DNA of 64,000 nucleotides, from IMG/VR virus record IMGVR_UViG_3300041585_000108, positions 11,319 to 75,318 of that record. One strand, 5' to 3'. The translations under genes and the position numbers were made by a program. Source of the stretch: a virus. The notes beneath the pieces are model-generated. The model was not told where the DNA came from. It made no database searches and was given only the letters and a program-made list of their open reading frames with translations. Shown here piece after piece: positions 4,063 to 62,740 of the stretch; the first letter of the stretch is position 1; each line of letters opens with the position of its first letter.

Positions 4063-4068
4063 ATCTTA

Positions 4069-4096
4069 ATTGTACTAAATATTAAAATATTGTCAA
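4069..4096 (-). promoter_or_regulatory. leaderless sigma70-type promoter for S8 protease
   Basis: TTGACA-N16-TACAAT-N6-ATG. Confidence 0.7.
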
Positions 4097-4245: not shown

Positions 4246-4603
4246 TTATATTCCTGTCTAATAATGTTGGTGCTGTTGCTAAACTTCCGCAGGCAAGGCA
4301 CTCCATGTCTAAATAATAGGTTGCTATTTCATAATCTTCAAAGGCAACCTTAACTAACCAAACTCCAGATCCGCAGGGGCATACGTGTGTTGGGGTTCCT
4401 CTTAAATCAATAGCTTTGTCGTAATCTATGGGAGGAACATACTGAGGATCATTTTCTTGAGCTATCTTTAGTATGTCCTGCACTGCTTCTTCATACTTAT
4501 CTATGTAGTAGAACCCAAGCTTAAACCTTCTAAAAAATATTCTAGCAAAAAGGGATAGTGATATTAAACTTATTGTGATTGATATAATTAATGCTATCCT
4601 CAT
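4238..4603 (-). CDS. membrane-anchored Zn-ribbon protein
   Basis: N-terminal TM helix; CPCG and CLACG motifs; TATAAT 6 nt upstream of ATG. Confidence 0.7.
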   Translation of the reverse strand: MRIALIISITISLISLSLFARIFFRRFKLGFYYIDKYEEAVQDILKIAQENDPQYVPPIDYDKAIDLRGTPTHVCPCGSGVWLVKVAFEDYEIATYYLDMECLACGSLATAPTLLDRNIIE

Positions 4604-4617
4604 ATAAAAATTATACC

Positions 4618-5172
4618 TTAAACCTGTATATATGTAAAGGGTGCAGATACGGACATATTAAATTCTGCGGCTGCTTCTAAAGCTGCCTTAAGTCTTACTT
4701 TTGGGTTTTTTTGATTTTTAGTGGCATGTAAAGCTCCCAGTGCTATTGATCCACCGCTTCCTTCTGCCATATAGTTAACTATGTTTTCTCCAACATGAAA
4801 GTCTTCATCTATAGTAAAGATTCTACCTTCTAGCCCAACAATAAATATTCCGCCTGTGTCTTCATCTGTTCCGCCTATATCTCCAAAGCCATGCTCTTTG
4901 AATGTAAGCTTGACTGAATCTACAAACTTAGTTCTTAAAAATTTATCTAAACCTGAGTTTGTTTTTGTTGGAGTATACTTTGGTGGGGTCCAAGAGTACT
5001 GAAGTATTTGCCCCATTCTAAAAGAGTCCGTAAATGCAATAGCATACTGACCAACCTTAAAGCATTTAGGCTCTTTTCTTGCTATTATCCATCCGCTTTT
5101 ATCATCAGATGCAGCGTGGTCGGAACCCATATAAACAGTTCCATTTTGAGCAATAGCCACAATACAGGTCAT
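4618..5172 (-). CDS. Ntn-hydrolase, HslV/proteasome beta-subunit-like protease
   Basis: N-terminal M-T-CIVA (catalytic Thr1), MGSD, conserved Lys, GSG loop, SVSAPF end. Confidence 0.8.
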   Translation of the reverse strand: MTCIVAIAQNGTVYMGSDHAASDDKSGWIIARKEPKCFKVGQYAIAFTDSFRMGQILQYSWTPPKYTPTKTNSGLDKFLRTKFVDSVKLTFKEHGFGDIGGTDEDTGGIFIVGLEGRIFTIDEDFHVGENIVNYMAEGSGGSIALGALHATKNQKNPKVRLKAALEAAAEFNMSVSAPFTYIQV

Positions 5173-5204
5173 AACTTAATTATACTAAATTTAAATTCGA
5201 AAGT

Positions 5205-11257: not shown

Positions 11258-11324
11258 ACTAATTTTTTGTTATCCCTTCAATAAATTTTTTTGTTTAATT
11301 AAAATCATAATTAAAATATTTTAT

Positions 11325-11431: not shown

Positions 11432-11671
11432 TTAATTTATATTATTTTTATTAAATTCTTCAACAATTTGTTGAACATATTCAGAAAAATGTTTTCTAAT
11501 TGAGCCTGCTGGTCTGCTACCAATACTATCATATATTTTTTTGTACTCTAGCACATTTTCATATGTTGTTGGACACAAAATTATTTTATTATAAGATTTA
11601 AGATTTATTGGTAATGGCACATGTTTTGTACAACACTTACACTGTTTTGCTTTTTCTTGATACTTGCTCAT
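11432..11671 (-). CDS. hypothetical Cys-containing protein
   Basis: CKCC...CPT; ATGA overlap with terminase stop. Confidence 0.7.
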   Translation of the reverse strand: MSKYQEKAKQCKCCTKHVPLPINLKSYNKIILCPTTYENVLEYKKIYDSIGSRPAGSIRKHFSEYVQQIVEEFNKNNIN

Positions 11672-13473
11672 ATTATCTCCATATTTTCAATTGACCTTGC
11701 TAGGCTTTCTGGCATTCTTGGTGCACGAATCATATTCTGAACGTACTCAACTTCTCCATCAGAGCTATTGGCAAAATCGTTGTCGTAGCTCATTGACTCG
11801 TAGTCATGAATTTTTATTTCCTCATCCCTTTTTATTCTAGTCTTACTAATACAGTTGTATACTGCCCCACATACAGCATCTGCTAAATCCTTAGAGCCTT
11901 TTCTAGGGTGGTCTATTTTATCTCTCATAATTCTTAGCTGAAGTAATTCATCAATTAATAATGAAATATGTGGGCCTCGCAAACGCTCTTCTAAAACTAC
12001 CATAGCCATATCATCATAATGTTTTTTGGCAACAGAAAGAATTTCAGTATTAATTCCATAAGATTTTAATTGCTGCATCATATCATGAGAATTCCATCTG
12101 TCAAATGTGCACAGCCTTATGTTGAATCCACGAGTTCTAAGAGACAGGATATAATCTTTTACTTCAGTAAAATCTACAGATTTATCTGGTGTTGGGGTCC
12201 AAAATCTTACTGCATCAATTTCAACTATTGGGGCTGGTTGAGAATAAGTGTCTGTTACTTTTACCTCAACCCACTTATTTACGTGTCCCATTGCAACAGC
12301 ACAATGATCATGTTTTTGAGCAAGGTCTACGTGTATAAAGTACTCTTTGCCTTCTTCTGGTTTAAACCATTCTTCAAGTCTTCCAAATTTATCTACAGCT
12401 AAAGCTGCATTATTGAATGCACTTTCAATTTTACTCCTTGACTTAAAAAAAGCATCTACGGCATCTGATGGCATGCATGCAAATCTACTTAGTGCATCTG
12501 GTAAATTTTTATGAAATGCAACGGTAAAGTCTGTTATTTTTTTTGTAGGGTTTACTTCCCATGTGGGTCTTTTTAATGCAAAAACTTTAGGATAAACATA
12601 TGAAACAATATGGTCTTCTTCCCATGAAACCTCAAACTCATTTCCCTCTGTATTATCTGGAAGATCAATATCTAGTTTCAATGTCTGGGTTCTAATAATT
12701 GTTTCTTTTTCTGCAATAACTGACTCATAAAATTTTTGAATAGGATCATTTTTAAATCTTGGAAATGAAAGCAAAATAATTTTACCAAAGTCTGGAAATC
12801 TAGAATCAACTGATGCCCTATACATATCGTAGATTGCTTCTGCTGTTTTTGCCTGATCATGCCCGCTTGTATTTTCAGTTGCAAATCCTGAAATCTCATC
12901 TAAAATTACAACTAAAACGTTGTATCCTTCAAAAGCTTCTCTTTCTGAGTGCCCTGAATGAACTGTAATAGATTTATCAAATTTTATTTCAGAAGCTTTA
13001 TCTGTATATTTTCCTGCAAACCATGGTGAGCTTTCGATACGCATCTTAAATCCTTTAAAGAAAACGTTATTTGCTTGTTGAGCATTTATTGCTATATTAA
13101 GAATATCAATAGCATCTCTTGGTGGTTTCCCATAGTATGCTGCTGGATTTTTTAGGCATAGCAATAAATACACTATGTATGCCACTGAAATAGTTGAAGA
13201 ATAATCTTTTCCAGACCCTTTGCCTAATTGAGCAATTATCTCAACACATGTCTGCTTAAACATTTTTTTGCCAAGCTCTTCGCCATAAAGTTTTATGAGG
13301 GTAGATTCTTTGTATATCTGAGAGCTTTTTGATATTAAAGTATACTGATGTTCTGAAAGTGGTGGAAGGCTCATGTAGTCTGGGCTTGTTACAAAAGTTT
13401 GCAGATCTACTGGACGTTCTTCAAACTCTTCTCCGTCTAGTATTTCTATAAAATCAGAAAAATCAAACGACAT
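11668..13473 (-). CDS. terL: terminase large subunit
   Basis: Walker A GKGSGKD, Walker B VVILDE, RNase H-like HVDLA...FDRW...DHP...KDLADA. Confidence 0.9.
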   Translation of the reverse strand: MSFDFSDFIEILDGEEFEERPVDLQTFVTSPDYMSLPPLSEHQYTLISKSSQIYKESTLIKLYGEELGKKMFKQTCVEIIAQLGKGSGKDYSSTISVAYIVYLLLCLKNPAAYYGKPPRDAIDILNIAINAQQANNVFFKGFKMRIESSPWFAGKYTDKASEIKFDKSITVHSGHSEREAFEGYNVLVVILDEISGFATENTSGHDQAKTAEAIYDMYRASVDSRFPDFGKIILLSFPRFKNDPIQKFYESVIAEKETIIRTQTLKLDIDLPDNTEGNEFEVSWEEDHIVSYVYPKVFALKRPTWEVNPTKKITDFTVAFHKNLPDALSRFACMPSDAVDAFFKSRSKIESAFNNAALAVDKFGRLEEWFKPEEGKEYFIHVDLAQKHDHCAVAMGHVNKWVEVKVTDTYSQPAPIVEIDAVRFWTPTPDKSVDFTEVKDYILSLRTRGFNIRLCTFDRWNSHDMMQQLKSYGINTEILSVAKKHYDDMAMVVLEERLRGPHISLLIDELLQLRIMRDKIDHPRKGSKDLADAVCGAVYNCISKTRIKRDEEIKIHDYESMSYDNDFANSSDGEVEYVQNMIRAPRMPESLARSIENMEII

Positions 13474-14002
13474 TTGATTCTTCTATAATTGTAATAGGCT
13501 CAACTATTCCAGTAATTTGAGATAATCTTTTAGCTACTTCTATTTTGCAATGATTGCAGCTAGAGGTTACTTCTTTTAGTATACTAACAAGCATCTCTTG
13601 CTTTCTTTCATTTTCTAAAATCTGAGATGCCATCTCATTGTTTTCAAGTAGGCCTACTGACTGAAGCATAGCAATCCTTTTTGTTTCAATGTCTGCTATT
13701 AGCTTTAATGTTCCTGATTTAACGCCCAGTTGTCCTTGGGTATCCGCATCTTCAACTGTTTTCCAGGCCTCTTTAATTAACATATCATAGTGTTGATCTG
13801 CACCCATAAGGGCTTCCTTGGCTCTATCTCTTACATTAGTATCATTATGAACTACAGACTTCCATTCATCAATGTACTCTAGAACTTCTTTTCTTGTAAA
13901 GCCTGTCATGCTTGCTATCTGAGTAGCAGAATTTCCTCTTAGTAATTCCGACACAACCTTATTCATTTTATCAAAGTGTACGGAAGGCTCTATTTCGCTC
14001 AT
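13463..14002 (-). CDS. probable terminase small subunit (N-terminal HTH, helical)
   Basis: HTH-like SATQIASMTGFTRKEV; directly upstream of and overlapping terL. Confidence 0.6.
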   Translation of the reverse strand: MSEIEPSVHFDKMNKVVSELLRGNSATQIASMTGFTRKEVLEYIDEWKSVVHNDTNVRDRAKEALMGADQHYDMLIKEAWKTVEDADTQGQLGVKSGTLKLIADIETKRIAMLQSVGLLENNEMASQILENERKQEMLVSILKEVTSSCNHCKIEVAKRLSQITGIVEPITIIEESNVV

Positions 14003-14008
14003 TAAATT

Positions 14009-14037
14009 ATTATACTTCTAGTCAACTAAAATGTCAA
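14009..14037 (-). promoter_or_regulatory. consensus leaderless promoter of terminase operon
   Basis: TTGACA-N17-TATAAT-N6-ATG. Confidence 0.85.
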
Positions 14038-15800: not shown

Positions 15801-16136
15801 TTATGAGTTATACCTAACTACATATTTAAGAGCATCTACTAATTTGTCTAAAGACTCTTTAACTGAATAATAAATATTTTTTTTGTTATTGTTTTTTGTA
15901 CCAGCTTTATCTTTAGCAATAGTAGAATAAACTGAAGCAAGTATTGCAAATTTAGTTGACATAGCTTGTAGCTCCATAATAAGCATAGGAGCTCTTGCAG
16001 ATGGAACATCTGGGTTCATTAAAAGCTTTACCACAATAGCAAGGGCTTTATCTAGATGCTCATCATGCATAAACTCATGAAGATCATTAAACTCTGTTAT
16101 ATCACTAATTAGCTCTAGCGTATTTTTATCTTCCAT
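15801..16136 (-). CDS. hypothetical helical protein
   Basis: Start set at ATG 16136; lies within the recombination operon. Confidence 0.75.
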   Translation of the reverse strand: MEDKNTLELISDITEFNDLHEFMHDEHLDKALAIVVKLLMNPDVPSARAPMLIMELQAMSTKFAILASVYSTIAKDKAGTKNNNKKNIYYSVKESLDKLVDALKYVVRYNS

Positions 16137-16830
16137 CTTTAATATCCTTTTCATAGTTTACGTGCAATTTAATTTTGCTAACTTCATGTTTCCCTATTAC
16201 ATTGCCCAAATGATCTATTCCTTTTTTATACATTCTTGGCCTTATTCCTTTTGCATTTAATCCTTTTAAATAAGATATGTAGTCTAAGTTGTCATGAATT
16301 CTTTTATATGGAGCAAAGGTATCTTTAATAGTAACAACAGAATCTTGGATGGATCCCAAGGAAATTGGTAATATACAGGCAATATTTGTTCCAGCTGGGA
16401 CAAAATATTCTTTATTTGGGGTGTCTAGTTTCCAAACAACAGAAAAAGAACCAGTAAAAACAGAAGTTGATAAAACTGTACTTAGAACGTGCGCACCCTC
16501 TAGATATTCATTTGGAACAGGCATAGTTATAACGCTTGTATTTTCATCAGTTTTAAAAAGTAAATTTGTTACAAAGCTTACTGTTCCTTCTCCTCTTCCA
16601 ACCCAGATATTATTGGAGCCAATTATTCCAACTGCGCCATCGGCCCTAGATCCATTCCACATAAATGAAATGTCTTCTTCAAAATAAATTCCGTAGCCCA
16701 AAGTATTGGCCATCCCAATTGGATCACAATTATAAGTATTTTCATGCATCCACTCTCTTTTCATAGCAAGGGGCCTTATTTTTGCTGAAGGACTTTCTTT
16801 ATTGTTGACATACACGTCTAGGTTATACAT
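16126..16830 (-). CDS. DUF6065-like protein (paralogue of 60376..61098)
   Basis: REWM...YNCDP...ANTLGYG pattern; colinear motifs with 60376..61098. Confidence 0.7.
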   Translation of the reverse strand: MYNLDVYVNNKESPSAKIRPLAMKREWMHENTYNCDPIGMANTLGYGIYFEEDISFMWNGSRADGAVGIIGSNNIWVGRGEGTVSFVTNLLFKTDENTSVITMPVPNEYLEGAHVLSTVLSTSVFTGSFSVVWKLDTPNKEYFVPAGTNIACILPISLGSIQDSVVTIKDTFAPYKRIHDNLDYISYLKGLNAKGIRPRMYKKGIDHLGNVIGKHEVSKIKLHVNYEKDIKDGR

Positions 16831-17128
16831 TATTTTTCTCCCAAAATTTTATTAAATCTTCTAAAACTGCCCACTCTATTATGCCAAGCCTGACCTTGCT
16901 TTCTGATCCTATAATAATTTTTAATGCTGGGTGCATATCTCGATTTACCTTAAAGGTGTCTGTACATATTTTTGCCCAGATCTCTTTATTTAAAGTAAAT
17001 GTTGACCCAGCTTCTTTATAATCGACTAAAAATTGTTTCCACTGAGCATCTCCTTTTTGGTAATCTCCTCTCCCAGAATTTTTTTGAGCTTTAGCCTTAT
17101 CTCTTTTTACTTCTGATCTTTCAGACAT
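16823..17128 (-). CDS. small PD-(D/E)xK nuclease, Hjc-like resolvase
   Basis: NSGRG..KGDA...VDYKE. Confidence 0.65.
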   Translation of the reverse strand: MSERSEVKRDKAKAQKNSGRGDYQKGDAQWKQFLVDYKEAGSTFTLNKEIWAKICTDTFKVNRDMHPALKIIIGSESKVRLGIIEWAVLEDLIKFWEKNNV

Positions 17129-17957
17129 CGGCATCTATTTCTTTAATAATAATTTCATTTGTATCTATTTTAATAATTTGAAGATTTTGATCTACATAAT
17201 CAGATTCTAGCATAGCAAAATTATTATTTTTATCTAAAAAGTATTTGCTTTTCCAGGGTATATTTTTGTCAGAAACGTAGTCTAAAAATGTTCTGGCAAA
17301 ATATCTATCAGCATTAAAATATTGTTTTACCCCATGGTAAAAAGGTTCTGTTGATGGCATTATAACTGCATCTCCTGCCATAGGCTTATATCTGTAGTTT
17401 TTTTTAGAAACATCATCATAAACGCATATATCTCCACCAGAGTAATTGTTATTTAGATAAAAATTAATTGTTGCAACATGTCTTTTTAGCTTAACTTCAT
17501 TTGGAAGAGGAAGCTCGTCAATATGGTATTCCATCATTAAATCTTTTTCTGTTTTTTTAAAAAGTTTTTCTTTTTTGTATTCATACTTAAAATAATCTAT
17601 ATATATACTTTTCCCTATAGAATTCATCTTGTCCCAGTCTAAAATAAAATCTGGCCATATCCCATTATTTTTAAAATCAAAAAAATAATCTTTATTTATA
17701 AAATTTGTAATGTCATAAATTTCTTTAAGATATTTTTTTTCTTTAATTGATCGATCTGTTTTTAATTTTAAATCTAAATCCCCATCAAAAGACATTCCTT
17801 TTCTTTTTCCCTGTTGGTACCAATCTCTCCATGGGTCTAAAATTGATTCTAAGCTATCTTCTTCAAACAAGTCTATCATTTCTTGGCTAGACTTAAATAT
17901 GTTTCTATAAACAACAATTTGAGGTGCAATTACTATCTTTTTAATATCATTAAACAT
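17121..17957 (-). CDS. 2OG-Fe(II) oxygenase (P4Hc-like)
   Basis: YHID, FYLNNNYSGG, AGDAVIMPS, FYHGV, DRYF. Confidence 0.85.
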   Translation of the reverse strand: MFNDIKKIVIAPQIVVYRNIFKSSQEMIDLFEEDSLESILDPWRDWYQQGKRKGMSFDGDLDLKLKTDRSIKEKKYLKEIYDITNFINKDYFFDFKNNGIWPDFILDWDKMNSIGKSIYIDYFKYEYKKEKLFKKTEKDLMMEYHIDELPLPNEVKLKRHVATINFYLNNNYSGGDICVYDDVSKKNYRYKPMAGDAVIMPSTEPFYHGVKQYFNADRYFARTFLDYVSDKNIPWKSKYFLDKNNNFAMLESDYVDQNLQIIKIDTNEIIIKEIDADV

Positions 17958-18145
17958 TAATTTATCACATACTCTGTTTTATGATTATTGGCGCATGTCC
18001 AAAACATCATTTGTTGTTCTGGGTCAAACCAGGATTCAGATACATCTAGCTCACATTTTGAGCATGGCTTAACCCCATTAATTTTTTCAAGGCTGTCTGA
18101 AATTAGTATTTCTTTTTTATCAAAAAACTCATTAAGATTTGGCAT
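17957..18145 (-). CDS. small Zn-ribbon protein
   Basis: CSKC...WTCANNH. Confidence 0.7.
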   Translation of the reverse strand: MPNLNEFFDKKEILISDSLEKINGVKPCSKCELDVSESWFDPEQQMMFWTCANNHKTEYVIN

Positions 18146-19136
18146 TTATCTCTCCGATTAAGCTGCCTACAACAGCTGGATTTTCCCTTAAATAGGCTAC
18201 AGTTTTTGCACGTCCTTGAAAACGTTCTCCATTTACTGTATACCATGCTCCACCTTTTTCAACCAACCCGTACATTTCAGCAACATCTAACGTCTCTCCA
18301 ACTCTATCAACACCTAAAGATTCTCCTTGGTAGTAGAAATCATATTGTCCTGAAAGGTTAGGGGGGCCGAGTTTGTTGTAATCAATAATCCAATTGACTG
18401 GCCTTCCGACACGCTGTTCAATAATTTTGTCCCCAACTTGAACGCCAGCCTTGATAGCATTAGCTTCAGCTTCTGAAGACCAGAGCTTGATAACGGTACT
18501 AGAGAAAAATTTAACTGCCATTCCTCCTGTTGGGATGTGCGAAGCATGCATTGACCCAAATTGATTTCTTTGCTGGGAGATAAGAACAAGTAGTGTGTTT
18601 TTGTTTGCATAGTTTAACATTTTGACTGCGTGAGTCATATCCTTTGCTTCTGCGCCGATTTGCTTAGTATCTTGCAAATCTTTCATTTCATTTCCATCTT
18701 TTTCAAAATAAATGCCTGGAAGAAGTGCAGATATTGAATCAACAACAATTACATCTACTCCCGCTTCCATCAACTTAACTCCTACATCAACCATATCATT
18801 AACAGTCTTAGCCTGGGAATAAATAAGAGAAGAGGAATCTACTCCCAGCTGTTCTGCCCACTTTTGATCGTAAGAGGCTTCTGAATCAATCCAAGCGCAG
18901 GTTTTGCCTTCTTGTTGTGCTAAAGCAATCATTTGCAAACAAAAAGAAGATTTTCCTGCTGATTTGTTTCCCCATACAAGAACCTGTCTACCGTAGCCTA
19001 AGCCCCCTTTAAGCGCAACGTTTAATCCGATGCTTGGGGTCAGCTGCTTATGAACTTTAATGTTTTGTGCAGATTGAACTCTTGCCCTTGTTTTTGGATC
19101 TAGTTTTGCCATAATATCTTCTAATGAAATAGTCAT
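18132..19136 (-). CDS. recA: RecA/UvsX-like recombinase
   Basis: Walker A GNKSAGKS, IDSE, IVVDSI, TGGMAVKF, GAWY. Confidence 0.93.
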   Translation of the reverse strand: MTISLEDIMAKLDPKTRARVQSAQNIKVHKQLTPSIGLNVALKGGLGYGRQVLVWGNKSAGKSSFCLQMIALAQQEGKTCAWIDSEASYDQKWAEQLGVDSSSLIYSQAKTVNDMVDVGVKLMEAGVDVIVVDSISALLPGIYFEKDGNEMKDLQDTKQIGAEAKDMTHAVKMLNYANKNTLLVLISQQRNQFGSMHASHIPTGGMAVKFFSSTVIKLWSSEAEANAIKAGVQVGDKIIEQRVGRPVNWIIDYNKLGPPNLSGQYDFYYQGESLGVDRVGETLDVAEMYGLVEKGGAWYTVNGERFQGRAKTVAYLRENPAVVGSLIGEINAKS

Positions 19137-28467: not shown

Positions 28468-31272
28468 TTATGATTCAAGTACGTCAAGCCTGGCAGAAAT
28501 AGATGTTAGGGCAGAGCTAATCTCTTGTATTGCTGAAACAATATATGGAATTAGATTTGTTGTCATGACTGATTGATAATCTGGATCTCCATTTTCATCT
28601 ACCCCATCCTTTGCTCCCTGCACAAAATCTGGAAACGGTTCGGCAAACTCGTGTGCAATAAAACCTATCTGAGTGTTACGCTCAGAGTCTGATTTCATAA
28701 TAAAGGTTCTTACTTTAGCCATATTAATTTTTTCAAGCCCGCCAGAGTAATCTTGTATATTGTCTTTTAGTCTATAATCTGAAGGACCTCTAAAAGAAGG
28801 AGTCCCAGTACTTATATTTATGCCTCCAGCATCAGACATACTATTAAAACTTGATGAGTACATGAATCTAATAGCTTCTACTGTTCCGCTTGTTGCATAT
28901 CTTCCAAACCAACCTGCAGGCCCATCAGTTCTTTTTGTAACCATAGATCCATTAGGGTTTAATGACACACTAGTATTTGTATCAGACGGCGTGGAAGTAG
29001 CAAATCCAGTAGATATAGAATAAAGAAAGTTAATTATTGGTCTATTTGAATAAATCTTCCCACTTTGGCTATAACCGCCAAAATAAAGATCAGCGCCATT
29101 TTGTGCAGTTAATATAATGTCATTCTGTGCAAAGCCGCCAAAACCAGCATTTGTAAAAAGTCCTGAACCACTGTTAAACATTAATGCAGAGGAACCAATG
29201 TCTAAACGTTGTGTGCCAGAAGTAACAGCAATTGCCCCTCCTGATAAAAATCCAGATGAAGTATCTGTTAGTGTAAGCGTAGCATCACTACCTAGTACTG
29301 TAGTTTTTGTTCCAGAAATAAGTCTTACAACTCCACTAAATTCACCAGAGGCTCCAGTTATATCTCCTTTAAATGTTGCGCTTCCATTAAAAGCGTCTAT
29401 AGAAAATGTTGATTGATTTAAAGAATTGTATGCTGCTATTCCAGCACTATTCATAACAACTCTTGCTCCAGTCCCTGGAGCCGATGCATTAGCATTACCA
29501 TTAGAAAATACAGTAATTCCCGCTGAATTTATTGCAGTTATATTATTATTAGAGTCTGTTATTGTGCTAGTGCTTTTTGTTAGTTTTGTAGCTATAGCAT
29601 TGTTTGCTGCTGTCACATTTGTATTAGTTGTTGTTAAATTTGTATTAGTTGTTGTTAAATTTGTATTAGTTGTTGTTAGTTGATCAGTAGTTGCATATCC
29701 AGAAATTGTTGTTCCTGAGCCAAATACCGCACCATTCACAAAAAGCGTTCCATCGGATCTAACTCTAAATTTTGCATTTGCATCTGGAATATTGTTTCCT
29801 GCCCATGCAAGCCAAGTAGAAGAAGCAAATGAGTATCCATTATGTAAATAAAATGCTGTTGTTGCGTTTGCTCCTAATTGTATAAAGCCAGTGCTGTCTA
29901 AAATAACATTGTTTTTAGATAGCGTGGTGCCACTTAAATTCCATCCCGCAATAGCTCCAGCATTTGCAGTTATTGTTCCAGTTGCTGCTGAAAGTATTAC
30001 TGAGTTTGTTCCACTTGCAACCTTTAATCCAGTTGAGTTAAGTGCAAATCCGTTCCCAGTTAAATTTCCAGTAGCATTATCTATTGTTCCGTTATATATA
30101 GAAGCTCCTGTTGTAGACATAAAGATATTACCACTAAAAGTTCCGCCTTTAGCATTTACATCCCCATCTACAGTAAATTTAGTTCCGTCCCAAGAAATGT
30201 AATTGGACGTACTTCCTCCTACTTTAAGCAAGGCTGACTGATTAGAGTCTATGTACCAGTAATTGTTTGCATTGAAGGAGAGCCCTCTTTTGCCAGGCTC
30301 TACGCCATATCCAAACTTAAACATTCCTATGTCACCCGTTGAACTTGCACCAAAATATCCAGTAGTTGTTACGTTAGTTCCAATATAAGGAGTGCCTGAT
30401 GAAACAACATTTCCTCCAGAAATATATGAAGATGATATGTTATTGTACTCGTCATATGTAGCAACTGCTATTTTATATGTAGCCCCTGCTGCTAACCCTG
30501 CAATTTTATATGAAGTTCCAGTTCCTGGAGAATCAACATATGAATATACTGGGGATGCTCCAATATCACTAGTAAACCTAATTCTATATCCTCTAATCCC
30601 GCCGCCTGTAACTGGTGCCCAAGATACTAGGGCAAAAGAATTAAATCCTATGCTTCCAGATGCGTCTATTCCTCCACTAGTAGTAACTAAAGAAACGTTT
30701 TCAGGACCAACCGTATCTACTGTAATTGGATCGGTAGCTTGAAATGGACCAAACACAACACTTTTTTTATGATAGTCCTGATCTCTTGTGTCTACACGTA
30801 TCCACCTATTGTTTGTATTTGAAACTAATATTGTTGCTGAATTTCCAGTACCATTCCAAACAAGATATTCTTCTCCAGTAAATGTTCCAGTCAAACTTTC
30901 ATAAATTTGTGCATCAATAAACCATTTATTGTTGGCCAAGCTTTTATCTATTGCATCCCACTTAACGCCATACAGCAAAAGCCCTGGGGTAACAACTAAA
31001 TTTGTAACTGGCATAGTAAAATCTGGAACCTCTAAAGTAAATATAAAGTTTGCTGATCTTGGTCCATATATAACCTGAGATGGATTTTCTGTATCCTGAT
31101 AAGCATAAGCAAAAGAAAATGGGTACACTCCATTTGCTATTACATTTAATCCAGATCTTTCTACTATAAAAGAACCTGCTGTTTGTTTTGAAGCAGCAAT
31201 TGCAGGATTACTTTGTTGTTCTGCAGGGACATTGTTTTTTCCTCCGTCTAAAGCAGATATTTTAAAAACCAT
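28468..31272 (-). CDS. tail fibre / receptor-binding protein with FN3 domain and C-terminal peptidase S74 autocleaving chaperone
   Basis: FN3 W...GYRIRF...YKIAVAT, beta-rich Gly repeats, SDYRLK...GFIAHE, coiled-coil end. Confidence 0.82.
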   Translation of the reverse strand: MVFKISALDGGKNNVPAEQQSNPAIAASKQTAGSFIVERSGLNVIANGVYPFSFAYAYQDTENPSQVIYGPRSANFIFTLEVPDFTMPVTNLVVTPGLLLYGVKWDAIDKSLANNKWFIDAQIYESLTGTFTGEEYLVWNGTGNSATILVSNTNNRWIRVDTRDQDYHKKSVVFGPFQATDPITVDTVGPENVSLVTTSGGIDASGSIGFNSFALVSWAPVTGGGIRGYRIRFTSDIGASPVYSYVDSPGTGTSYKIAGLAAGATYKIAVATYDEYNNISSSYISGGNVVSSGTPYIGTNVTTTGYFGASSTGDIGMFKFGYGVEPGKRGLSFNANNYWYIDSNQSALLKVGGSTSNYISWDGTKFTVDGDVNAKGGTFSGNIFMSTTGASIYNGTIDNATGNLTGNGFALNSTGLKVASGTNSVILSAATGTITANAGAIAGWNLSGTTLSKNNVILDSTGFIQLGANATTAFYLHNGYSFASSTWLAWAGNNIPDANAKFRVRSDGTLFVNGAVFGSGTTISGYATTDQLTTTNTNLTTTNTNLTTTNTNVTAANNAIATKLTKSTSTITDSNNNITAINSAGITVFSNGNANASAPGTGARVVMNSAGIAAYNSLNQSTFSIDAFNGSATFKGDITGASGEFSGVVRLISGTKTTVLGSDATLTLTDTSSGFLSGGAIAVTSGTQRLDIGSSALMFNSGSGLFTNAGFGGFAQNDIILTAQNGADLYFGGYSQSGKIYSNRPIINFLYSISTGFATSTPSDTNTSVSLNPNGSMVTKRTDGPAGWFGRYATSGTVEAIRFMYSSSFNSMSDAGGINISTGTPSFRGPSDYRLKDNIQDYSGGLEKINMAKVRTFIMKSDSERNTQIGFIAHEFAEPFPDFVQGAKDGVDENGDPDYQSVMTTNLIPYIVSAIQEISSALTSISARLDVLES
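29617..29678 (-). repeat. three 21-bp tandem repeats encoding heptad LTTTNTN
   Basis: Plus strand ATTTGTATTAGTTGTTGTTAA x3 (last copy imperfect). Confidence 0.85.
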
Positions 31273-56349: not shown

Positions 56350-57468
56350 TTACTTCTCTTCTAGTGCTTTAATTCTCGCAGTTAATTCTTGCACAGATTT
56401 AATTAAAGGGGATACAAATTGATCATATCTTAATCCTTGCATGGAATCTTCATCTGACATATCTATTTGAACCCAACCAGCAAAATCTTCTATCTCGGCA
56501 TCTACTAGAGATTCTTTAACTTCTTGAGCAATTAATCCATAATGTGTTCTTGATCCAGGTATTGATATTAGATCTCCGTCAACTATTTCTTTTCCTCCCT
56601 CAATAAATTTATATTTTACTGGGTTTAAAGAATTAATAAAATTAAGCCCTAGGTCGGTAGGAAAAACTTCTGTTTTTAATCTTTCGTCAGAAGTATTAAT
56701 TGTACCTGTATTAGAATAAATAGTTTTCCAAAATTTATTTGAAGAAACTCCAGAGCCAGAATCTATTGGTTGTCCAATAGAGTAAAGATTTGTTGCAAGG
56801 GGGTACCAATTAGAGTTTACTCCATAAACAGATGTAGTTGGAATATTTAACGATATTGTTGTTGGGATTGGATCAATTGTTGCACTTGATCCAGGAACCC
56901 CTTGGATACCTTGCGCACCTGTGGCTCCAGTTGCTCCTCTAGGGATTGTAAATTGAAATACTGCATTTGTGGATGTCCCAGTATTTGTTACAGAAGCATT
57001 TGTTCCAGCGGTTCCAGTTATTGTTAAAGCATTTACTGCCAAAGTGGTCGGCCCTTGTATTCCTTGTGGCCCTTGTATTCCTTGTGGCCCTTGAGGCAAC
57101 ACAAGATTTAAAACTTGAGACGGACTAGATCCAGTAATTGTTGCACTAGCGTTAATTCCAGAAACAATATTTCCTACTGATAAAACGTTTGACGGACCAG
57201 GACCACCCAATACTCCATCAATTCCTCTAGGAAGAGTTAATTTTAATATAGCGTTTTGAGCAGTGCCAATATTTTGCACAGATCCAGCTGTACCTGCTGG
57301 CACCGTAGTAACTAGAGGGTATACCTCTAAGGTACCTGAAGGCCCCTGTGGACCTGGATGAGCGTCCAAGTAAGCATCTACGTCGGCAGCTAAATAACCT
57401 AAGTCTCTAGGGACATCAGGAGTGTCTGTATACTGAGGATATCTAAACCCTTTACCTGTTGTAGTCAT
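56350..57468 (-). CDS. collagen-like fibre protein with peptidase S74 chaperone
   Basis: GPQGIQGPQGIQGP and GATGATGAQGIQGVPG Gly-X-Y runs; SDERLK...GLIAQEV...LRYDQF. Confidence 0.85.
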   Translation of the reverse strand: MTTTGKGFRYPQYTDTPDVPRDLGYLAADVDAYLDAHPGPQGPSGTLEVYPLVTTVPAGTAGSVQNIGTAQNAILKLTLPRGIDGVLGGPGPSNVLSVGNIVSGINASATITGSSPSQVLNLVLPQGPQGIQGPQGIQGPTTLAVNALTITGTAGTNASVTNTGTSTNAVFQFTIPRGATGATGAQGIQGVPGSSATIDPIPTTISLNIPTTSVYGVNSNWYPLATNLYSIGQPIDSGSGVSSNKFWKTIYSNTGTINTSDERLKTEVFPTDLGLNFINSLNPVKYKFIEGGKEIVDGDLISIPGSRTHYGLIAQEVKESLVDAEIEDFAGWVQIDMSDEDSMQGLRYDQFVSPLIKSVQELTARIKALEEK

Positions 57469-57488
57469 TTTTTTATTATACCATTATC

Positions 57489-58142
57489 TTACTTAATATA
57501 TACATGAACCGAACTCATATATCTAGTTCCAAAAATAATAGGCTTTACCTCATGAAGATAAGGTAACTGTGATGGAAACATTATCATGCTCCCAGCTTTT
57601 GGTTTAATGGTAATGTTTTGATTTGGAAAATTAATTTCTCCTCCTTCATAATTATCGTTTGGATAAGAAACTAAAGAAAATGCAAGGTCTGAATTACCAT
57701 CTTGTCCGTCAAAATGTGGGCCCATAGATTGCCCTTGATTCCATTTTTTAATCGGAACATTATTCAATTCTAGCCTATAATCATTTTCATCTAATCCATG
57801 TCCAGCCAAATATCTATTTGAACACATTTCAAAAGCCATTAAAAAGCTATTGCTAATATACAAAGTTTTTTTGTCTGTTGCGTCTGATCCCGTACTACTT
57901 TTTAATTCAGAAGATAGTATGTTTTTTGTTGCTCCATATATTATGGATGTGTCATCGCTTGCAGTCCAATTTTTCCATTTTGTAATTTTATTATAAGATA
58001 GCTCATTTAAATCAATTTCTTCAATAAAATCAACAAGGTGATCGGGAAAACTTAAAGCATTTTCCCAATACCATATATTAGGATTTAAAATTTGTAAGTC
58101 AAACATCACAAACTGCTTAAACTCAATATTATTTTTTATCAC
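57489..58142 (-). CDS. 2OG-Fe(II) oxygenase (P4Hc-like)
   Basis: PHFD, YPNDNYEGGE, YLHEV, TRY. Confidence 0.9.
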   Translation of the reverse strand: MIKNNIEFKQFVMFDLQILNPNIWYWENALSFPDHLVDFIEEIDLNELSYNKITKWKNWTASDDTSIIYGATKNILSSELKSSTGSDATDKKTLYISNSFLMAFEMCSNRYLAGHGLDENDYRLELNNVPIKKWNQGQSMGPHFDGQDGNSDLAFSLVSYPNDNYEGGEINFPNQNITIKPKAGSMIMFPSQLPYLHEVKPIIFGTRYMSSVHVYIK

Positions 58143-58888
58143 TCTACTTCCTCTGCTGGATATTTTTTACCTTGAGCGGTTATTCTTAATCCTTCTTGTC
58201 TAACCGCTTCCCATTCTGAAGCTTCTATTTTTTGATGAGCTCTTACTTTTAAAAGTTCTTCTGCCCATTTATCTCTTGTTTCTTGCGGATAATCTTCTTC
58301 TTCTCTATCATCCCAAAATGACCCTAGTGTGTATCGTATAGCTTTTTTTACTGTAGTGACTTCATGCATATTATGAAATCCTCCAGCAAATGTTACTAAA
58401 GTTCCAGTTTTTGGAACAATTTTTAATCCATGTTTAAAATTTAAAATCCCGTCTTCAAAGTCATCGTTTAAATAAAGAAAGGTTGCATATCTGCTTCTAG
58501 TAAATGCACCCGAGACTCCATCATTAGAGGTGTTGTCAGAATGCATATTTGCAAAAGCACCTGGTGCCCATCTTTGTGAGTGCCAACTTATTTGTGACAT
58601 TTGTTTTGGATCTTTGCCAGCCATTTCTGCTGTTGCATCAATGACTCTTTGTCTAAGCGATTGAAAAAAATCTCCTGGAAGTCTAGATGCAATTGTATCT
58701 GGGTCATCTATATCTGGAGTACCAGATGAATATGACTCATAAAATGATATTGGCATCCACTTTAACTGTTCTTTTTCCATTTTAATTGCCAAAACATCAA
58801 TTATTGATTTGCATTCTTCTGGTGTTAAAAAATTTTCATACTCAGTAATGTCTTCTTTGTGTTTAGTTATAATCATGTTTCTTTTCAT
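58139..58888 (-). CDS. 2OG-Fe(II) oxygenase (P4Hc-like)
   Basis: NFLTPEEC, MHSD, YLNDDFEDG, MHEV, IRY. Confidence 0.9.
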   Translation of the reverse strand: MKRNMIITKHKEDITEYENFLTPEECKSIIDVLAIKMEKEQLKWMPISFYESYSSGTPDIDDPDTIASRLPGDFFQSLRQRVIDATAEMAGKDPKQMSQISWHSQRWAPGAFANMHSDNTSNDGVSGAFTRSRYATFLYLNDDFEDGILNFKHGLKIVPKTGTLVTFAGGFHNMHEVTTVKKAIRYTLGSFWDDREEEDYPQETRDKWAEELLKVRAHQKIEASEWEAVRQEGLRITAQGKKYPAEEVE

Positions 58889-58889
58889 T

Positions 58890-59708
58890 TTAATTTCCTT
58901 GGCCTTTCTTAGAAGCTATATATTCTTCGTAAGGAAGTAATTGTTCATCACTAAAATAAATCATGTTTCTTTTATCATCGTAATCTATTCTTTCCTGCTC
59001 CATTTTTGCCCATCTGTATGCACCAAATTTTCTTTGGTTTTCAAGCCATTCCTCTGTTCCATTGTGGGGAGTCATAATAAAATTTCTTACAAAAAACTTT
59101 TCATTTGTGTTAATTGTTTTTACTCCATGAAAATAAGGTTGAGTTGAAGGAAAAACTAAAATGTCTCCTGCTTGTGGCTTATGATTAATAAGCTTTTTGT
59201 CTACGTAAAACTCAATATCTCCACCTTCGTAATCATCATTTATATACATTGTACATGTTATAAAAAATTTATCTCCAGGCATATCTTTTTGAGAAGTTAT
59301 GTGGTCTGTGTGGTATTGCATTGTCATGCTGTTTAGTAAAGTATCAATATTAGCGTTATACTTAGAATATGAGCATCCACTAAATCGCCAGCCATCGGGC
59401 AAATTAATTTTATGTCTTTGTACATAATCTAAGATTACTTTGTTATAAGCTTCTTCAACTTCTTCAACAAAATTTTTTTCTTTAATAAACATTTCATGAG
59501 ATAAAGTATCAGCTAAAATTTCTTTACTATCTTTTTTTTGACTGTAGGTTCCAAAATGTGCCCAAGGATCCCAAGTTTTTAAAAAATATTTTCCTTCGGA
59601 GTTTTTTTCAGAATCATTCATGACGTTATACATTTGATCTACATCTTTTAAAACATTTCTATATACATCAATATTTGGGTAAAGCTCTACGTAATCTAAT
59701 TTATTCAT
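58890..59708 (-). CDS. 2OG-Fe(II) oxygenase (P4Hc-like)
   Basis: YHTD, YINDDYEGG, AGDILVFPS, FHGV, EKF. Confidence 0.9.
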   Translation of the reverse strand: MNKLDYVELYPNIDVYRNVLKDVDQMYNVMNDSEKNSEGKYFLKTWDPWAHFGTYSQKKDSKEILADTLSHEMFIKEKNFVEEVEEAYNKVILDYVQRHKINLPDGWRFSGCSYSKYNANIDTLLNSMTMQYHTDHITSQKDMPGDKFFITCTMYINDDYEGGDIEFYVDKKLINHKPQAGDILVFPSTQPYFHGVKTINTNEKFFVRNFIMTPHNGTEEWLENQRKFGAYRWAKMEQERIDYDDKRNMIYFSDEQLLPYEEYIASKKGQGN

Positions 59709-60379
59709 GGTTGTTTTTCTCCTGTATGTTTATTTATTGTCCAAAAAAATGGGGACGTAAATCTATTACCAGATTTTATTGGGCGTACCCCATGCGTATA
59801 ATTCATATCGCCTGGGAAAAAATATGCTGCTCCAGCAACTGGCTGAAATTCAATTCCATGTTGTGGAAAATATAACTCTCCACCTTCATAATCATCATTG
59901 AAATAAAATAATCCTGCTAGATCGTACCACGGAAAATCATTTGGCCTTCCTTTTTCTGGACCAGAATGAAATTCTTTGTCTGCATGAGGCTCTTGTCTTG
60001 TTCCAATTGGCCACCTAACAATTGCTGGACCAGTTTCTTTTGCATCAACATTAAAAAATGAATCAACTTGAATTTTTAATCTTGCTATCATGCTATACAC
60101 AAGATCAAGTATGCCTGGGTCTGAAGCCATTAAAGAATTGTAAGTGCAGACTCTATCTTCCCAAACTGTATGATCATATAAAACTAATCCATCTTCATCT
60201 CTATGAGTTTCTGTTATATCCCAAACCTTATTATTTAATGCAAAGTTCATCAGTCTTTCTCGTTCATCTAAGCTTAAAAAATCTCTAATTTCTACAATAT
60301 TATCAGGGGAGTTTCCAAAAAATCCAGATGGCGTAATTGACTTTGGTCTATTATCGTTCCAGCTATTTTCTAATTTCAT
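59705..60379 (-). CDS. 2OG-Fe(II) oxygenase (P4Hc-like)
   Basis: PHAD, YFNDDYEGGE, THGV, NRF. Confidence 0.9.
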   Translation of the reverse strand: MKLENSWNDNRPKSITPSGFFGNSPDNIVEIRDFLSLDERERLMNFALNNKVWDITETHRDEDGLVLYDHTVWEDRVCTYNSLMASDPGILDLVYSMIARLKIQVDSFFNVDAKETGPAIVRWPIGTRQEPHADKEFHSGPEKGRPNDFPWYDLAGLFYFNDDYEGGELYFPQHGIEFQPVAGAAYFFPGDMNYTHGVRPIKSGNRFTSPFFWTINKHTGEKQP

Positions 60380-61098
60380 TTATTTTCTCCTTTATTTATT
60401 ATATCATCATTTATTTTTAGCCTTATTGATTTTACTTGATGAGAACCTATTTTTCTTTTTAAATGATCTACAGCATCCCTATAAAAATTGGACCAGTTTG
60501 CTGTTTTATTTAAGTTGTATATTGCCTTAGAATATTCATTAGAATCAAATAGCGGTGCTTTTAAGCTAGACAATGGTTTTAAGGTTATTTCTGAATTGTT
60601 TATAGAAACCAAATCTATTGGAAGTATTGCAATAATTGGAGTGTTGGCTTTTATTGTTATAACTTCATTTGGTTTTGTTATCATCCATGCTACTGGTAGC
60701 TCCCCTGCAAAAAATGATGTGCTTATTAATGTTGTAAATGGGACTGCTCCGTCAATAAAAAAATTTGGAACTGGCATAGAAAGCAAGCTTATATCTTTAT
60801 TTGTTTTAAACATTATGCCTGTATTAAAGCTTATAGTTCCATTTGCTCTTCCAGAATAAGCATATTTATCTCCAGATAAAATTTTAACATGATCTGAAGT
60901 GCTATCTGAAATTCCATCCCAAATAAAAGATATATCTTCTGGAAAAGATATTCCCCATCCTAACTGATTTGTTAAACTAACTGGAAAACATTTATATGCG
61001 TGAGCATCAAAAGTTGCGTTCATCCAATCTCTTTTAGCCGTTAAGCAATCAACTTTTCCTAATTCTTTTCTTATAACATAAGCTTCTATGCTATGCAT
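60376..61098 (-). CDS. DUF6065-like protein
   Basis: KRDWM...AYKCFP...NQLGWG pattern. Confidence 0.72.
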   Translation of the reverse strand: MHSIEAYVIRKELGKVDCLTAKRDWMNATFDAHAYKCFPVSLTNQLGWGISFPEDISFIWDGISDSTSDHVKILSGDKYAYSGRANGTISFNTGIMFKTNKDISLLSMPVPNFFIDGAVPFTTLISTSFFAGELPVAWMITKPNEVITIKANTPIIAILPIDLVSINNSEITLKPLSSLKAPLFDSNEYSKAIYNLNKTANWSNFYRDAVDHLKRKIGSHQVKSIRLKINDDIINKGENK

Positions 61099-61804
61099 TT
61101 TGATTTTTGCCAGATTTAATATCTTCTTCTAGCCATTTAGATCTCATTTGAATAAATTCTTGTTTATGAGAATGGTCGTTATAATCTAACATAGTTACAA
61201 TAGAAAATTTTGTTCCAGATTCTACTGGCATTGCTCTATGAGAAAATAAATAAGTAGAAGGAAAAATATAAAGGTCTCCTGCTTTAGGCTTTATATCTAG
61301 TCCAATCTTGGGAAAATAAAGGTTTCCCCCTTCATAATCATCATTAACATAAGCTACTAAAGAAACTGTTGCGCTATAAGAAAATCCATGATCAGCATGC
61401 TCTTGAAAATGTTGTTTTTCGCCATAGCGAATGCAATTCATAACTTCCCAATAATTCATCTTTATATTGTATCTTGAACAATAATCTTCTACGGCAATGT
61501 TTTGAGATATTTTTAAATCATTCCATAGGCTTGAAACTAAATTTTGTGTTTCATTAATTGGATTTTTTATTTCTGCAATTTTAATATCTTCGCAATCTCT
61601 GTATGATGGCCTTTTTTCACTATAACCAACATATCCAAAAATCCAATCAAATCTTGACTCTCCTTCTTTAGCTGCTGATTCACCAATTTTATTAAGCCTA
61701 TTGATTACGTCAATTTCTTTTTTAATTACATCTCTATATACCCATACACCTGGAAAAAGCTCTTCTTTAGAGGAAAATAAATAATTGTTGTTTAAATTTG
61801 TCAT
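61091..61804 (-). CDS. 2OG-Fe(II) oxygenase (P4Hc-like)
   Basis: EHAD, YVNDDYEGG, FPS, SHRAMPVESGTKFS (Lys-type 2OG binder). Confidence 0.9.
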   Translation of the reverse strand: MTNLNNNYLFSSKEELFPGVWVYRDVIKKEIDVINRLNKIGESAAKEGESRFDWIFGYVGYSEKRPSYRDCEDIKIAEIKNPINETQNLVSSLWNDLKISQNIAVEDYCSRYNIKMNYWEVMNCIRYGEKQHFQEHADHGFSYSATVSLVAYVNDDYEGGNLYFPKIGLDIKPKAGDLYIFPSTYLFSHRAMPVESGTKFSIVTMLDYNDHSHKQEFIQMRSKWLEEDIKSGKNQNA

Positions 61805-61810
61805 AAATAC

Positions 61811-61819
61811 ATTGTATCA
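61811..61819 (-). promoter_or_regulatory. extended -10 leaderless promoter of oxygenase operon
   Basis: TGa-TACAAT-N6-ATG. Confidence 0.6.
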
Positions 61820-61829
61820 TTTATGCTTA

Positions 61830-61874
61830 TAAAGCACAATAGCAAGGGGAACGGCCCCTTGCTATTGTGCTTTA
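61830..61874 (-). terminator. terminator after the FN3/PPFF gene
   Basis: Perfect 20-bp arms TAAAGCACAATAGCAAGGGG / CCCCTTGCTATTGTGCTTTA with 5-nt loop. Confidence 0.8.
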
Positions 61875-61879
61875 ATTTA

Positions 61880-62740
61880 TTAGTAGTACCTTATAAATCT
61901 GCTACCAAAGTATGGTGGTGCGAAGAAGCTTGGTGGTGCGAAGAAGCTTGGTGGGAAAAACGGTGGTGCGAAGAAGCTTGGTGGTGCGAAGAAGCTTGGT
62001 GGTGCGAAGAAGCTTGGTGGAAAAAACGGTGGTGCGAAGAAGCTTGGTGGAAAAAACGGTGGTGCGAAGAAGCTTGGTGGTGCGAAGAAGCTTGGTGGAA
62101 AAAACGGTGGAAAAAACGGTGGCGAAAAAAATGTTGGGGACAAAGTAGTAACAGTGTTTGTGTTATTTGATGCATCAGATCTTCCATTAGCGTTATCTGC
62201 ATATACATTGTAATACTGTGATGTTTCAGCAGTATCTGCAATTGATATAGATAAAGAGGTTGTATTACCAGTTGTTGCATCATTTCCAACAACAAAATAG
62301 TTAGTTATTGCAGTTCCTCCATTTTCTGGAGCTACCCATGTAACTGTATTTGCGTTAACCCCAGCTGTTGCAGATGCGCTTGTTGGAGCACTTGGTTTTG
62401 TTGTAACTGTTACAGAATTAGAGGCAGCCGATGCTGGACCAGTTCCTGCAGCATTTGTTCCTGTTACTGTAATAGTTGTAATAGCACCTACTCCAAAACC
62501 AGTAATAGTTAGTGGAGAAGATGATCCTGTAGCAGAATGTGTTGTATTGTGTACGCTACAAAACCCTGATGCCGTAAAAGATGTTGCAGTATTTGGCCCT
62601 GTTGGGGTAAATGTTACTGTAACTGCTCCATTCCCATAAGCACGACCTATTCCAACATTTGTTGCTGTTTCAATTGTTGGTGCATATGGTGTTAAGAAGT
62701 CATTTGCTCCTTGGCTCATTCTACCTGCTTGTTTTGACAT
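61880..62740 (-). CDS. FN3-like virion protein with Pro-Phe-rich repeat tail
   Basis: Two FN3-like units (PSAPT...VTWVAPENGGTAITNY; VTGTNAAGTG), then PPFF/PPSFFA array; AAGGGAG SD. Confidence 0.8.
   Translation of the reverse strand: MSKQAGRMSQGANDFLTPYAPTIETATNVGIGRAYGNGAVTVTFTPTGPNTATSFTASGFCSVHNTTHSATGSSSPLTITGFGVGAITTITVTGTNAAGTGPASAASNSVTVTTKPSAPTSASATAGVNANTVTWVAPENGGTAITNYFVVGNDATTGNTTSLSISIADTAETSQYYNVYADNANGRSDASNNTNTVTTLSPTFFSPPFFPPFFPPSFFAPPSFFAPPFFPPSFFAPPFFPPSFFAPPSFFAPPSFFAPPFFPPSFFAPPSFFAPPYFGSRFIRYY
61907..62122 (-). repeat. coding repeat array: 5x PPFF (12 bp), 8x PPSFFA (18 bp), 1x PPYF
   Basis: Units CCACCGTTTTTT and CCACCAAGCTTCTTCGCA read directly. Confidence 0.95.

Follow-up and report, generated by a model that had tools for sequence, protein, structure and literature searches.

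Tandem arrays of 2-oxoglutarate (2OG) oxygenase genes have been conspicuous and unexplained gene sets of aquatic phages since the first cyanophage genomes, and we know of no phage array whose substrate has been named on evidence. The question of what such enzymes act on is raised in a specific form by a 64,000-nucleotide (nt) window (the whole stretch of DNA analysed here, positions 11,319 to 75,318 of the IMG/VR virus record IMGVR_UViG_3300041585_000108), which is a portion of a 75.3-kb contig with a completeness of ~66%. Here, a block of six genes encoding five PF13640 oxygenases and one DUF6065 protein lies between a gene whose product ends in a Pro-Pro-Phe-Phe tract and a gene for a collagen-like fibre. 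We suggest that the Pro-aromatic polymer (PP-Phe/Tyr/His-Phe)n, first that of the upstream gene, is the most likely substrate of the array oxygenases, a reading to which we give about an even chance of being right. Oxygenases reach 7-14 copies per ~110-kb genome in this lineage, and a genetically encoded Pro-aromatic polymer is a concrete, testable candidate substrate for phage oxygenase arrays.

The features of the locus, in the order of transcription, are as follows (aa, amino acids; ORF, open reading frame).

61880-62740, minus strand: FN3-type protein of 286 aa with a C-terminal (PPFF/PPSFFA)n tract (ORF and translation)
61830-61874: perfect 20-bp hairpin separating the tract gene from Ox1 (20 pairs, 9 GC, loop of 5)
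61811-61816, minus strand: TACAAT -10 box with TG-N before it, 6 nt ahead of the Ox1 ATG
61091-61804, minus strand: Ox1, PF13640 oxygenase, Lys type (Pfam, 51.5 bits)
60376-61098, minus strand: DUF6065 protein (PF19541, 102.7 bits against a cut-off of 26.6)
59705-60379, minus strand: Ox2, PF13640 oxygenase, Arg type, the best conserved of the paralogues
58890-59708, minus strand: Ox3, PF13640 oxygenase, Lys type (Pfam, triad alignment)
58139-58888, minus strand: Ox4, PF13640 oxygenase, Arg type (Pfam, triad alignment)
57489-58142, minus strand: Ox5, PF13640 oxygenase, Arg type, with 1-3 copies in relatives
57475-57480, minus strand: TATAAT -10 box 6 nt ahead of the fibre ATG, where the next transcription unit starts
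56350-57468, minus strand: collagen-like fibre with a Peptidase_S74 intramolecular chaperone (Pfam, translation)

All five enzymes exceed the gathering cut-off of PF13640 (2OG-FeII_Oxy_3), with scores of 30.7-51.5 bits against 27. They are 23-31% identical to one another, and the HxD...H triad is invariant across them. In homologues the triad is at least 97% invariant (55-89 unique sequences per paralogue, down to ~25% identity), and because it is maintained in such divergent proteins, all five oxygenases are probably catalytically active and under purifying selection. For Ox1, residues H136, D138, H189 and K199 are invariant in 32 homologues. Ten positions past the distal His lies a basic residue, for which Ox1 and Ox3 use Lys and the other three enzymes (Ox2, Ox4 and Ox5) use Arg. 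A preliminary description of this DNA, made from its letters alone, had reported five mutually divergent 2OG-Fe(II) oxygenases with intact triads, two using Lys and three using Arg as the 2OG ligand, and these assignments hold. Ox2 is 86-90% identical within the main lineage, near the 88-91% of the portal protein.

The kinship of the enzymes points to protein substrates. Searched against the PDB, a profile of the Ox1 family (32 members) matched only protein hydroxylases: the collagen prolyl 4-hydroxylase (P4H) of Bacillus anthracis (E 1.8e-7), LH3/PLOD3 (1e-4) and PiuC (1e-3), more weakly mimivirus L230 (0.012) and the PBCV-1 P4H (0.06), and also P4H-TM and P3H1. A comparison of Ox1 with the B. 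anthracis P4H structure likewise gave an E value of 1.3e-6. No AlkB, TET/JBP or small-molecule oxygenase structure was matched in the PDB searches with the oxygenases. These matches support the placement of the enzymes, on sequence grounds, among relatives of collagen-type protein hydroxylases (P4H/PLOD type), and bear out the P4H-type kinship proposed earlier.

Protein hydroxylases may also have host targets. Bacterial PPHD acts on EF-Tu and Ofd1/Tpa1-type enzymes act on uS12, and PF13640 includes such enzymes. The array could thus serve a take-over of the host by hydroxylating its translation factors or ribosomal proteins, and the PiuC-type matches, the operon's own promoter and a second oxygenase-DUF6065 pair amid replication and recombination genes would all fit this role. 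We nevertheless consider it distinctly unlikely, given that the block lies within the structural module, that 5-14 divergent paralogues per genome are hard to square with one or two targets, and that the co-variation of array and tract described below would be left unexplained.

As the preliminary description had stated, the gene directly upstream ends in a Pro-Pro-Phe-Phe array. The tract, located at about 61890-62110 and followed by GSRFIRYY, contains 14 PP-x(0,1)-aromatic-F motifs in PPFF/PPSFFA units, has no Lys, and is underlain by a tandem DNA repeat at 61913-62110. Homologues preserve both the frame of the tract and its rule, namely PP, an optional small residue, an aromatic residue and Phe. 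The spacer is S, G, V, A, R or absent, and it varies, as do codons and repeat number, even among near-identical phages. Homologues of the tract protein match Pfam fn3 above the cut-off, and relatives also carry tracts as internal linkers of proteins of 900-1100 aa, for which no homologue was found in the window.

In many homologues, the tract is followed by a domain of ~110 aa with a Cys directly after the tract and an Asn-rich or His-Asn end. The post-tract Cys and the ...NN/HN endings are seen in L087 (L087:5020-7041), L235 and L236, for example as ...PPGF and then CIHEDT..., and such homologues also occur in L026 and L048. Matches of this C-terminal domain are below threshold, with 24.7 bits for Intein_splicing against a cut-off of 35.8 and an E value of 0.031 for Hint_2. 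If the putative Hint-like autoprocessing takes place in these homologues, it implies that the tract would be left as the mature C-terminus. The window's own tract protein is without the Hint-like domain.

A repetitive peptide that adjoins tailoring enzymes also recalls a pathway for ribosomally synthesized and post-translationally modified peptides, in which the repeat would be the released core peptide, as had been suggested for this locus. No leader, protease, cyclase or exporter was found at the locus, however, and the tract forms the tail of an FN3-type protein of 286 aa, with fn3 matches in homologues. The Hint-like domains present in many homologues, moreover, would cut behind the tract, at its C-terminal end, and would leave the repeats unreleased. 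We regard this pathway as extremely improbable.

Linkage of tract and array across relatives

To judge gene order in relatives, we used 80 loci (L010-L089) retrieved through DUF6065, scoring order only where the flanks were covered. The order kept in those loci is fibre, tract protein, Ox1, DUF6065 and Ox2-Ox5. Ox1 always directly precedes DUF6065, and the two form a constant core that is often duplicated as a unit. Tracts were also sought blindly, by scanning 2.9 million IMG/VR viral contigs for DNA able to encode PPFFPPFF, and the 39 tract ORFs followed by 2.5 kb or more of DNA were taken as testable. For 33 of these 39, oxygenase or DUF6065 genes are present on the same strand, mostly no more than 1 kb away. 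Among the positives are lineages with a DUF6065 of only 25-35% identity, where the tract comes first and is followed by Ox2-like genes, Ox1 and DUF6065. As for the six exceptions, three are on contigs with 5-6 PF13640 genes elsewhere, one is on a 31%-complete fragment and two are on short contigs.

A similar picture emerges within a clade defined by the portal protein (26 records of at least 30 kb, portal identity 71-91%). The portal search behind this clade gave at least 569 hits. The tract is immediately upstream of the array in each of the 14 records with at least five oxygenases. Nine records without an oxygenase are also without a tract; in three of them the DNA upstream of the portal gene is too short for the record to count, and one is a genome of 104.5 kb that is complete and has terminal repeats (G030). 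Neither tract nor oxygenase was found in the Streptomyces phage LukeCage. Relatives that lack the cluster retain FN3 homologues, 36-41% identical, minus the tract. Tract and enzymes are therefore present or absent together in related phages, a pattern that is perfect in this sample, with records that are not statistically independent. The preliminary description had proposed to examine whether genes with PPFF tails co-occur with these oxygenases across phages, and they do so in most testable cases of the blind scan and in the portal clade.

One clade record, first scored as having a single oxygenase and no tract, carries a variant cassette (5918-14588 of L402, which is G029:C1:11000-27300). 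Its FN3 protein has (PFGFT)n in place of PPFF and a Cys-less Hint-like end. The genes after the FN3 protein are two DUF6065-like genes, several genes for proteins of 190-280 aa, at least two oxygenase genes, a short-chain dehydrogenase/reductase gene, and a gene with a weak match to PF11397 (E 1.4e-3, below cut-off), which is N-acetylglucosamine (GlcNAc)-transferase-like. We take PF11397 to be the family of the Skp1 hydroxyproline GlcNAc-transferase. A change of tract to (PFGFT)n is thus accompanied by a different enzyme set.

The other flank of the array offers a different candidate. The gene directly downstream was described as having collagen runs, and short Gly-X-Y runs are indeed present. 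This fibre, together with other Gly-X-Y fibres, could be the true substrate, in the way that BclA-type proteins are for the P4H of B. anthracis. It is the collagen P4H of that organism that matches best in the PDB, and most of the main lineage has the fibre after the array. On the other hand, the runs are short, most of their Pro is at X and not at Y, and the fibre is not beside the arrays in L087-L089, L201, L240, L243 and L258. Because arrays occur without it, the fibre is unconvincing as a specific partner, and we think it quite improbable that it is the substrate. What remains of the original proposal of a dedicated tailoring pathway for repeat proteins is the kinship of the enzymes and their tight linkage to the tract, which extends beyond the window; the collagen-like fibre and the released peptide fall away.

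DUF6065 and the case for the tract

The sixth gene of the block encodes the DUF6065 protein. An AlphaFold2 model built from 87 diverse homologues reached a predicted local distance difference test (pLDDT) score of 96.3, and replaced an earlier, poor model (pLDDT 47) built from only 14 close homologues. Compared with 48,161 representative chains, the model gave 22 dUTPase/dCTP-deaminase chains on top (VIA Z 10.3-5.5), with the next unrelated chain at Z 3.7, and Foldseek concurs (E 5e-4). We therefore predict, confidently, that DUF6065 adopts a dUTPase-like beta fold. Near-invariant residues of the family are R23, W25, Y35, C37, P39, N44, G47, W60, G62, T99, N112 and Y206; Cys37 is conserved and there is no metal triad. 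We also considered DUF6065 as a member of the dUTPase/dCTP deaminase family by sequence and rejected this assignment, since no dUTPase-family Pfam match was found at E values up to 0.01 and structural alignments with chains of the dUTPase superfamily give ~12% identity.

DUF6065 is a sizeable family, with 924 representatives at the 50% identity level. No match at 1e-5 was returned when the protein was compared by tblastn with 50,697 phage records. Fusions of DUF6065 to Cupin_8/JmjC domains, ~550 aa in length, are widespread in Sphingomonadaceae and Caulobacteraceae (L091-L136, e.g. L134:8001-9635), and fusions of Stf0 sulfotransferases to DUF6065 exist as well (P0113, P0124). The surroundings of bacterial DUF6065 genes are uninformative and include a methyltransferase gene, alcohol dehydrogenase genes and a TonB receptor gene in L134, and a pentapeptide-repeat protein gene in L152. 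A search with the oxygenase hidden Markov model (HMM) found a PF13640-type gene near bacterial DUF6065 at only 1 of 79 loci (L100, ~3.7 kb off).

In this phage, DUF6065 occurs in one further place.

16126-17957, minus strand: second module, consisting of Ox6 (17121-17957), a 103-aa ORF and DUF6065b (16126-16830)

This module lies between the RecA gene (18132-19136) and Cas4-like/RuvC-like genes. DUF6065b scores 66 bits to PF19541. The module is conserved in the lineage and diverges faster than its neighbours, with 51-82% identity versus 80-97% for RecA. The genome totals are seven PF13640 genes and two DUF6065 genes. In complete relatives there are 7-12 oxygenases, many of which lie at a distance from the fibre genes, and the highest PF13640 counts are 14 in G018 (behind L370, an 80%-complete contig) and 12 in G001 (behind L016, a complete 113-kb genome).

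The second module and the predicted fold together suggest a role in nucleotide or nucleic-acid modification, with DUF6065 binding a (deoxy)nucleotide and the oxygenases oxidising bases or sugars. This reading has to be set against the lack of a dUTPase-family Pfam match for DUF6065, whose conserved residue set (R23, W25, Y35, C37, N44, N112 and Y206) we do not recognise as dUTPase motifs, and against oxygenases that match no AlkB or TET/JBP structure. The main array, in addition, sits among structural genes. We consider such a role very unlikely.

We favour the Pro-aromatic tract as the substrate because of the type of enzyme, the synteny, the linkage in the blind scan, the joint presence and absence in the portal clade, and the FN3 homologues without a tract, and also because the enzyme set shifts with (PFGFT)n, the PP and the aromatic pair are kept, and DUF6065 is found fused to JmjC/Cupin_8 domains. 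In the model we propose, the tract, whether it ends an FN3-rich protein of the fibre region or forms a linker inside one, would take an extended, polyproline-II-like conformation, the shape bound by P4H-type enzymes. Different paralogues may then hydroxylate different positions of the tract, most likely Pro, with DUF6065 acting as a non-oxygenase partner with a dUTPase-like fold. The modified tract would form the mature C-terminus, naturally so in the phage described here and after Hint-like cleavage in many relatives. The genes present, their intact catalytic residues, the modelled DUF6065 fold and the joint occurrence of tract and array are established. From these we infer what is modified and at which residue, how the paralogues share the work, what DUF6065 does, and a location in the virion.

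Several observations weigh against this model. The hairpin and a separate promoter divide the tract gene from the array, and Phe-rich PP tracts are, to our knowledge, no known substrate of P4H. Two short contigs (L236, L277) have a tract gene without an adjoining array. Conversely, there are further oxygenases away from any tract, including the oxygenase-DUF6065 pair in the recombination module, and a PP-aromatic tract was sought in the cyanophage Syn9 and not found, though a related array is present there. The predicted fold of DUF6065 belongs to nucleotide-binding enzymes. Since tract gene and array adjoin, a single recombination event can gain or lose both, and part of the pattern is explained by inheritance as a block. 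The best topology of the portal tree gives four joint changes (bootstrap range 3-4), of which supported branches force only one because the backbone of the tree is poorly resolved, and an independent-pairs sign test is underpowered, with one pair on supported branches and four on all branches.

A bolder version of the model is conceivable. The polyproline-aromatic tail of the virion's fibre proteins could be a new kind of polymer, built post-translationally, that is multiply hydroxylated (4-hydroxyproline, 3-hydroxyproline, dihydroxyproline and possibly Phe) and in relatives maybe glycosylated, matured by a Hint-type step and dependent on DUF6065 as a new type of oxygenase partner. The result would be a sticky or rigid appendage like mussel foot proteins or plant extensins. 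We hold this full picture to be unlikely. The simpler proposal of the tract as substrate would, if true, already mean enzymatic hydroxylation of phage structural proteins and a new substrate class for P4H-type enzymes.

Transcription signals and further genes of the window

Every gene of the window is carried on the minus strand. The six genes of the block (57489-61804) overlap or abut, and the successive junctions of Ox1, DUF6065, Ox2, Ox3, Ox4 and Ox5 are overlaps of 8, 4 and 4 nt, a 1-nt gap and an overlap of 4 nt. On the 5' side, in the order of transcription, are a fibre gene (62764 onward), the tract protein gene, the hairpin and the Ox1 promoter. On the 3' side, the collagen-like fibre is followed by genes for a LamG-type protein, a small protein, the portal and the prohead protease. 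These data agree with the preliminary description, in which six tightly coupled genes formed one unit, with a 20-bp hairpin and a leaderless promoter upstream and a new promoter at 57475. The hairpin is likely a terminator or processing site, and the TACAAT box ahead of Ox1 is predicted to be a leaderless-type promoter.

The arrangement of a -10 box six nucleotides from the start codon is not limited to this locus. TAYAAT-N6-ATG occurs 10 times in the window versus 2.9 expected, a 3.5-fold excess over shuffles; nine of the 10 lie on the coding strand, and six coincide exactly with ORF starts. Example sites are 4060-4074, 4601-4615, 5170-5184, 14000-14014, 57466-57480 and 61802-61816. Because the motif is enriched, mostly on the coding strand and at ORF starts, leaderless-type promoters appear to be a real habit of this phage, and the enrichment fits widespread leaderless transcripts, as in actinobacteria. 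The window's portal is 56% identical to that of Streptomyces Stanwilliamsviridae. Based on this portal kinship and the leaderless-type promoters, the phage probably infects actinobacteria. The block itself is best explained as a self-contained operon of a ~110-kb uncultured, lake-type siphovirus lineage that is distantly related to Streptomyces Stanwilliamsviridae. A blastn search with the whole block against the 50,697 phage records gave no match.

Some further features of the window deserve mention. Most relatives have one more oxygenase gene, between the homologues of 13463-14002 and 11668-13473. The minus-strand gene at 614-1978 encodes a 454-aa protein with a signal-peptide-like N-terminus and ~280 aa of PQ/PE/PK repeats (25% Pro) that are TonB- or PARP-like, followed by a hydrophobic segment and a basic tail, and its GC content is 46% versus ~35% elsewhere. 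By its composition, this protein could be a second Pro-rich candidate for a prolyl hydroxylase. A perfect tandem repeat of three 21-bp units is present at 29617-29678, within a 934-aa ORF (28468-31272).

Comparison with known systems

The block was initially put forward as a new system, a claim that is too strong. The cyanophage Syn9 has a tandem dioxygenase array (gp41-gp54) that includes a dUTPase-fold protein with a conserved Cys, published in 2010 and interpreted as secondary-metabolite chemistry (Iyer et al., 2010, Nucleic Acids Res 38:5261; PMC2938197). In a profile-profile comparison, Syn9 gp43 matches the DUF6065 profile with 94% probability and an E value of 1.2e-7, with the Cys aligned; an HMM search of Syn9 with PF19541 did not detect gp43. 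By this comparison, gp43 is a distant homologue of DUF6065. Another Syn9 protein, gp46, was rejected as a DUF6065 homologue on comparison. Because gp43 matches DUF6065, arrays that pair oxygenases with DUF6065 were already known, albeit in silico only. Our literature search found nothing specific on DUF6065, on oxygenases of freshwater actinophages, on phage P4H enzymes with collagen-like fibres, or on Pro-Phe repeats.

Both arrays combine tandem, divergent classical 2OG dioxygenases (five here) with a dUTPase-fold, conserved-Cys protein, and both are placed after tail-fibre genes. The Syn9 array, however, has a JmjC/MINA member and two Trp halogenases, whereas the Pfam content of the block is only PF13640 and PF19541, and Syn9 is a T4-like myovirus, unlike the siphovirus-type genome described here.

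By analogy with the Syn9 array, the enzymes and the dUTPase-fold protein might build or decorate a small molecule or free peptide, with the tract protein a mere neighbour. That this was the chemistry proposed for an array with a DUF6065 homologue (PMC2938197) favours the idea, as do the fusions of DUF6065 to Stf0 sulfotransferases and the dispersal of oxygenase genes in the genome. Yet neither the block nor its relatives have nonribosomal peptide synthetase, ATP-grasp, halogenase or transporter genes, the closest solved relatives of the oxygenases are all protein hydroxylases, and the array co-varies with the tract, including the change of enzyme set upon the change of tract. We find this explanation rather unlikely. 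Should the pairing of tract and enzymes fail, the secondary-metabolite reading of Iyer et al. would gain weight; if the pairing is true, it would assign a role to DUF6065 and to Syn9 gp43.

Among single enzymes, the closest solved relative is the B. anthracis collagen P4H (PDB 3itq, 5hv0), with which Ox1 shares the triad and Lys as the 2OG ligand. Only ~85 core residues align, and the B. anthracis enzyme acts on peptides of the Gly-Pro-Pro type. Two further viral enzymes are relevant. The chlorovirus PBCV-1 has a prolyl 4-hydroxylase, reportedly described by Eriksson and colleagues in 1999. This enzyme (PDB 5c5t, a weak match with an E value of 0.06) is, like those of the array, a viral P4H-type enzyme for which the virus's own Pro-rich repeats are plausible substrates; unlike the array, it is a single enzyme of a eukaryotic virus, associated with PAPK-type repeats, and there is no DUF6065 partner there. 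Mimivirus L230 modifies a collagen-like protein of viral origin, and as a viral enzyme with a viral substrate it resembles what we propose here. L230 and LH3/PLOD3, by contrast, hydroxylate Lys and carry fused glycosyltransferase domains, and the tract has no Lys to offer. The last comparison is with the bacterial fusions of DUF6065 to Cupin_8/JmjC domains. The fusion genes are cellular and have no neighbouring tract protein, and their oxygenase domain is JmjC and not PF13640, but they share with the phage block the joining of DUF6065 to a 2OG oxygenase of a protein-hydroxylase family.

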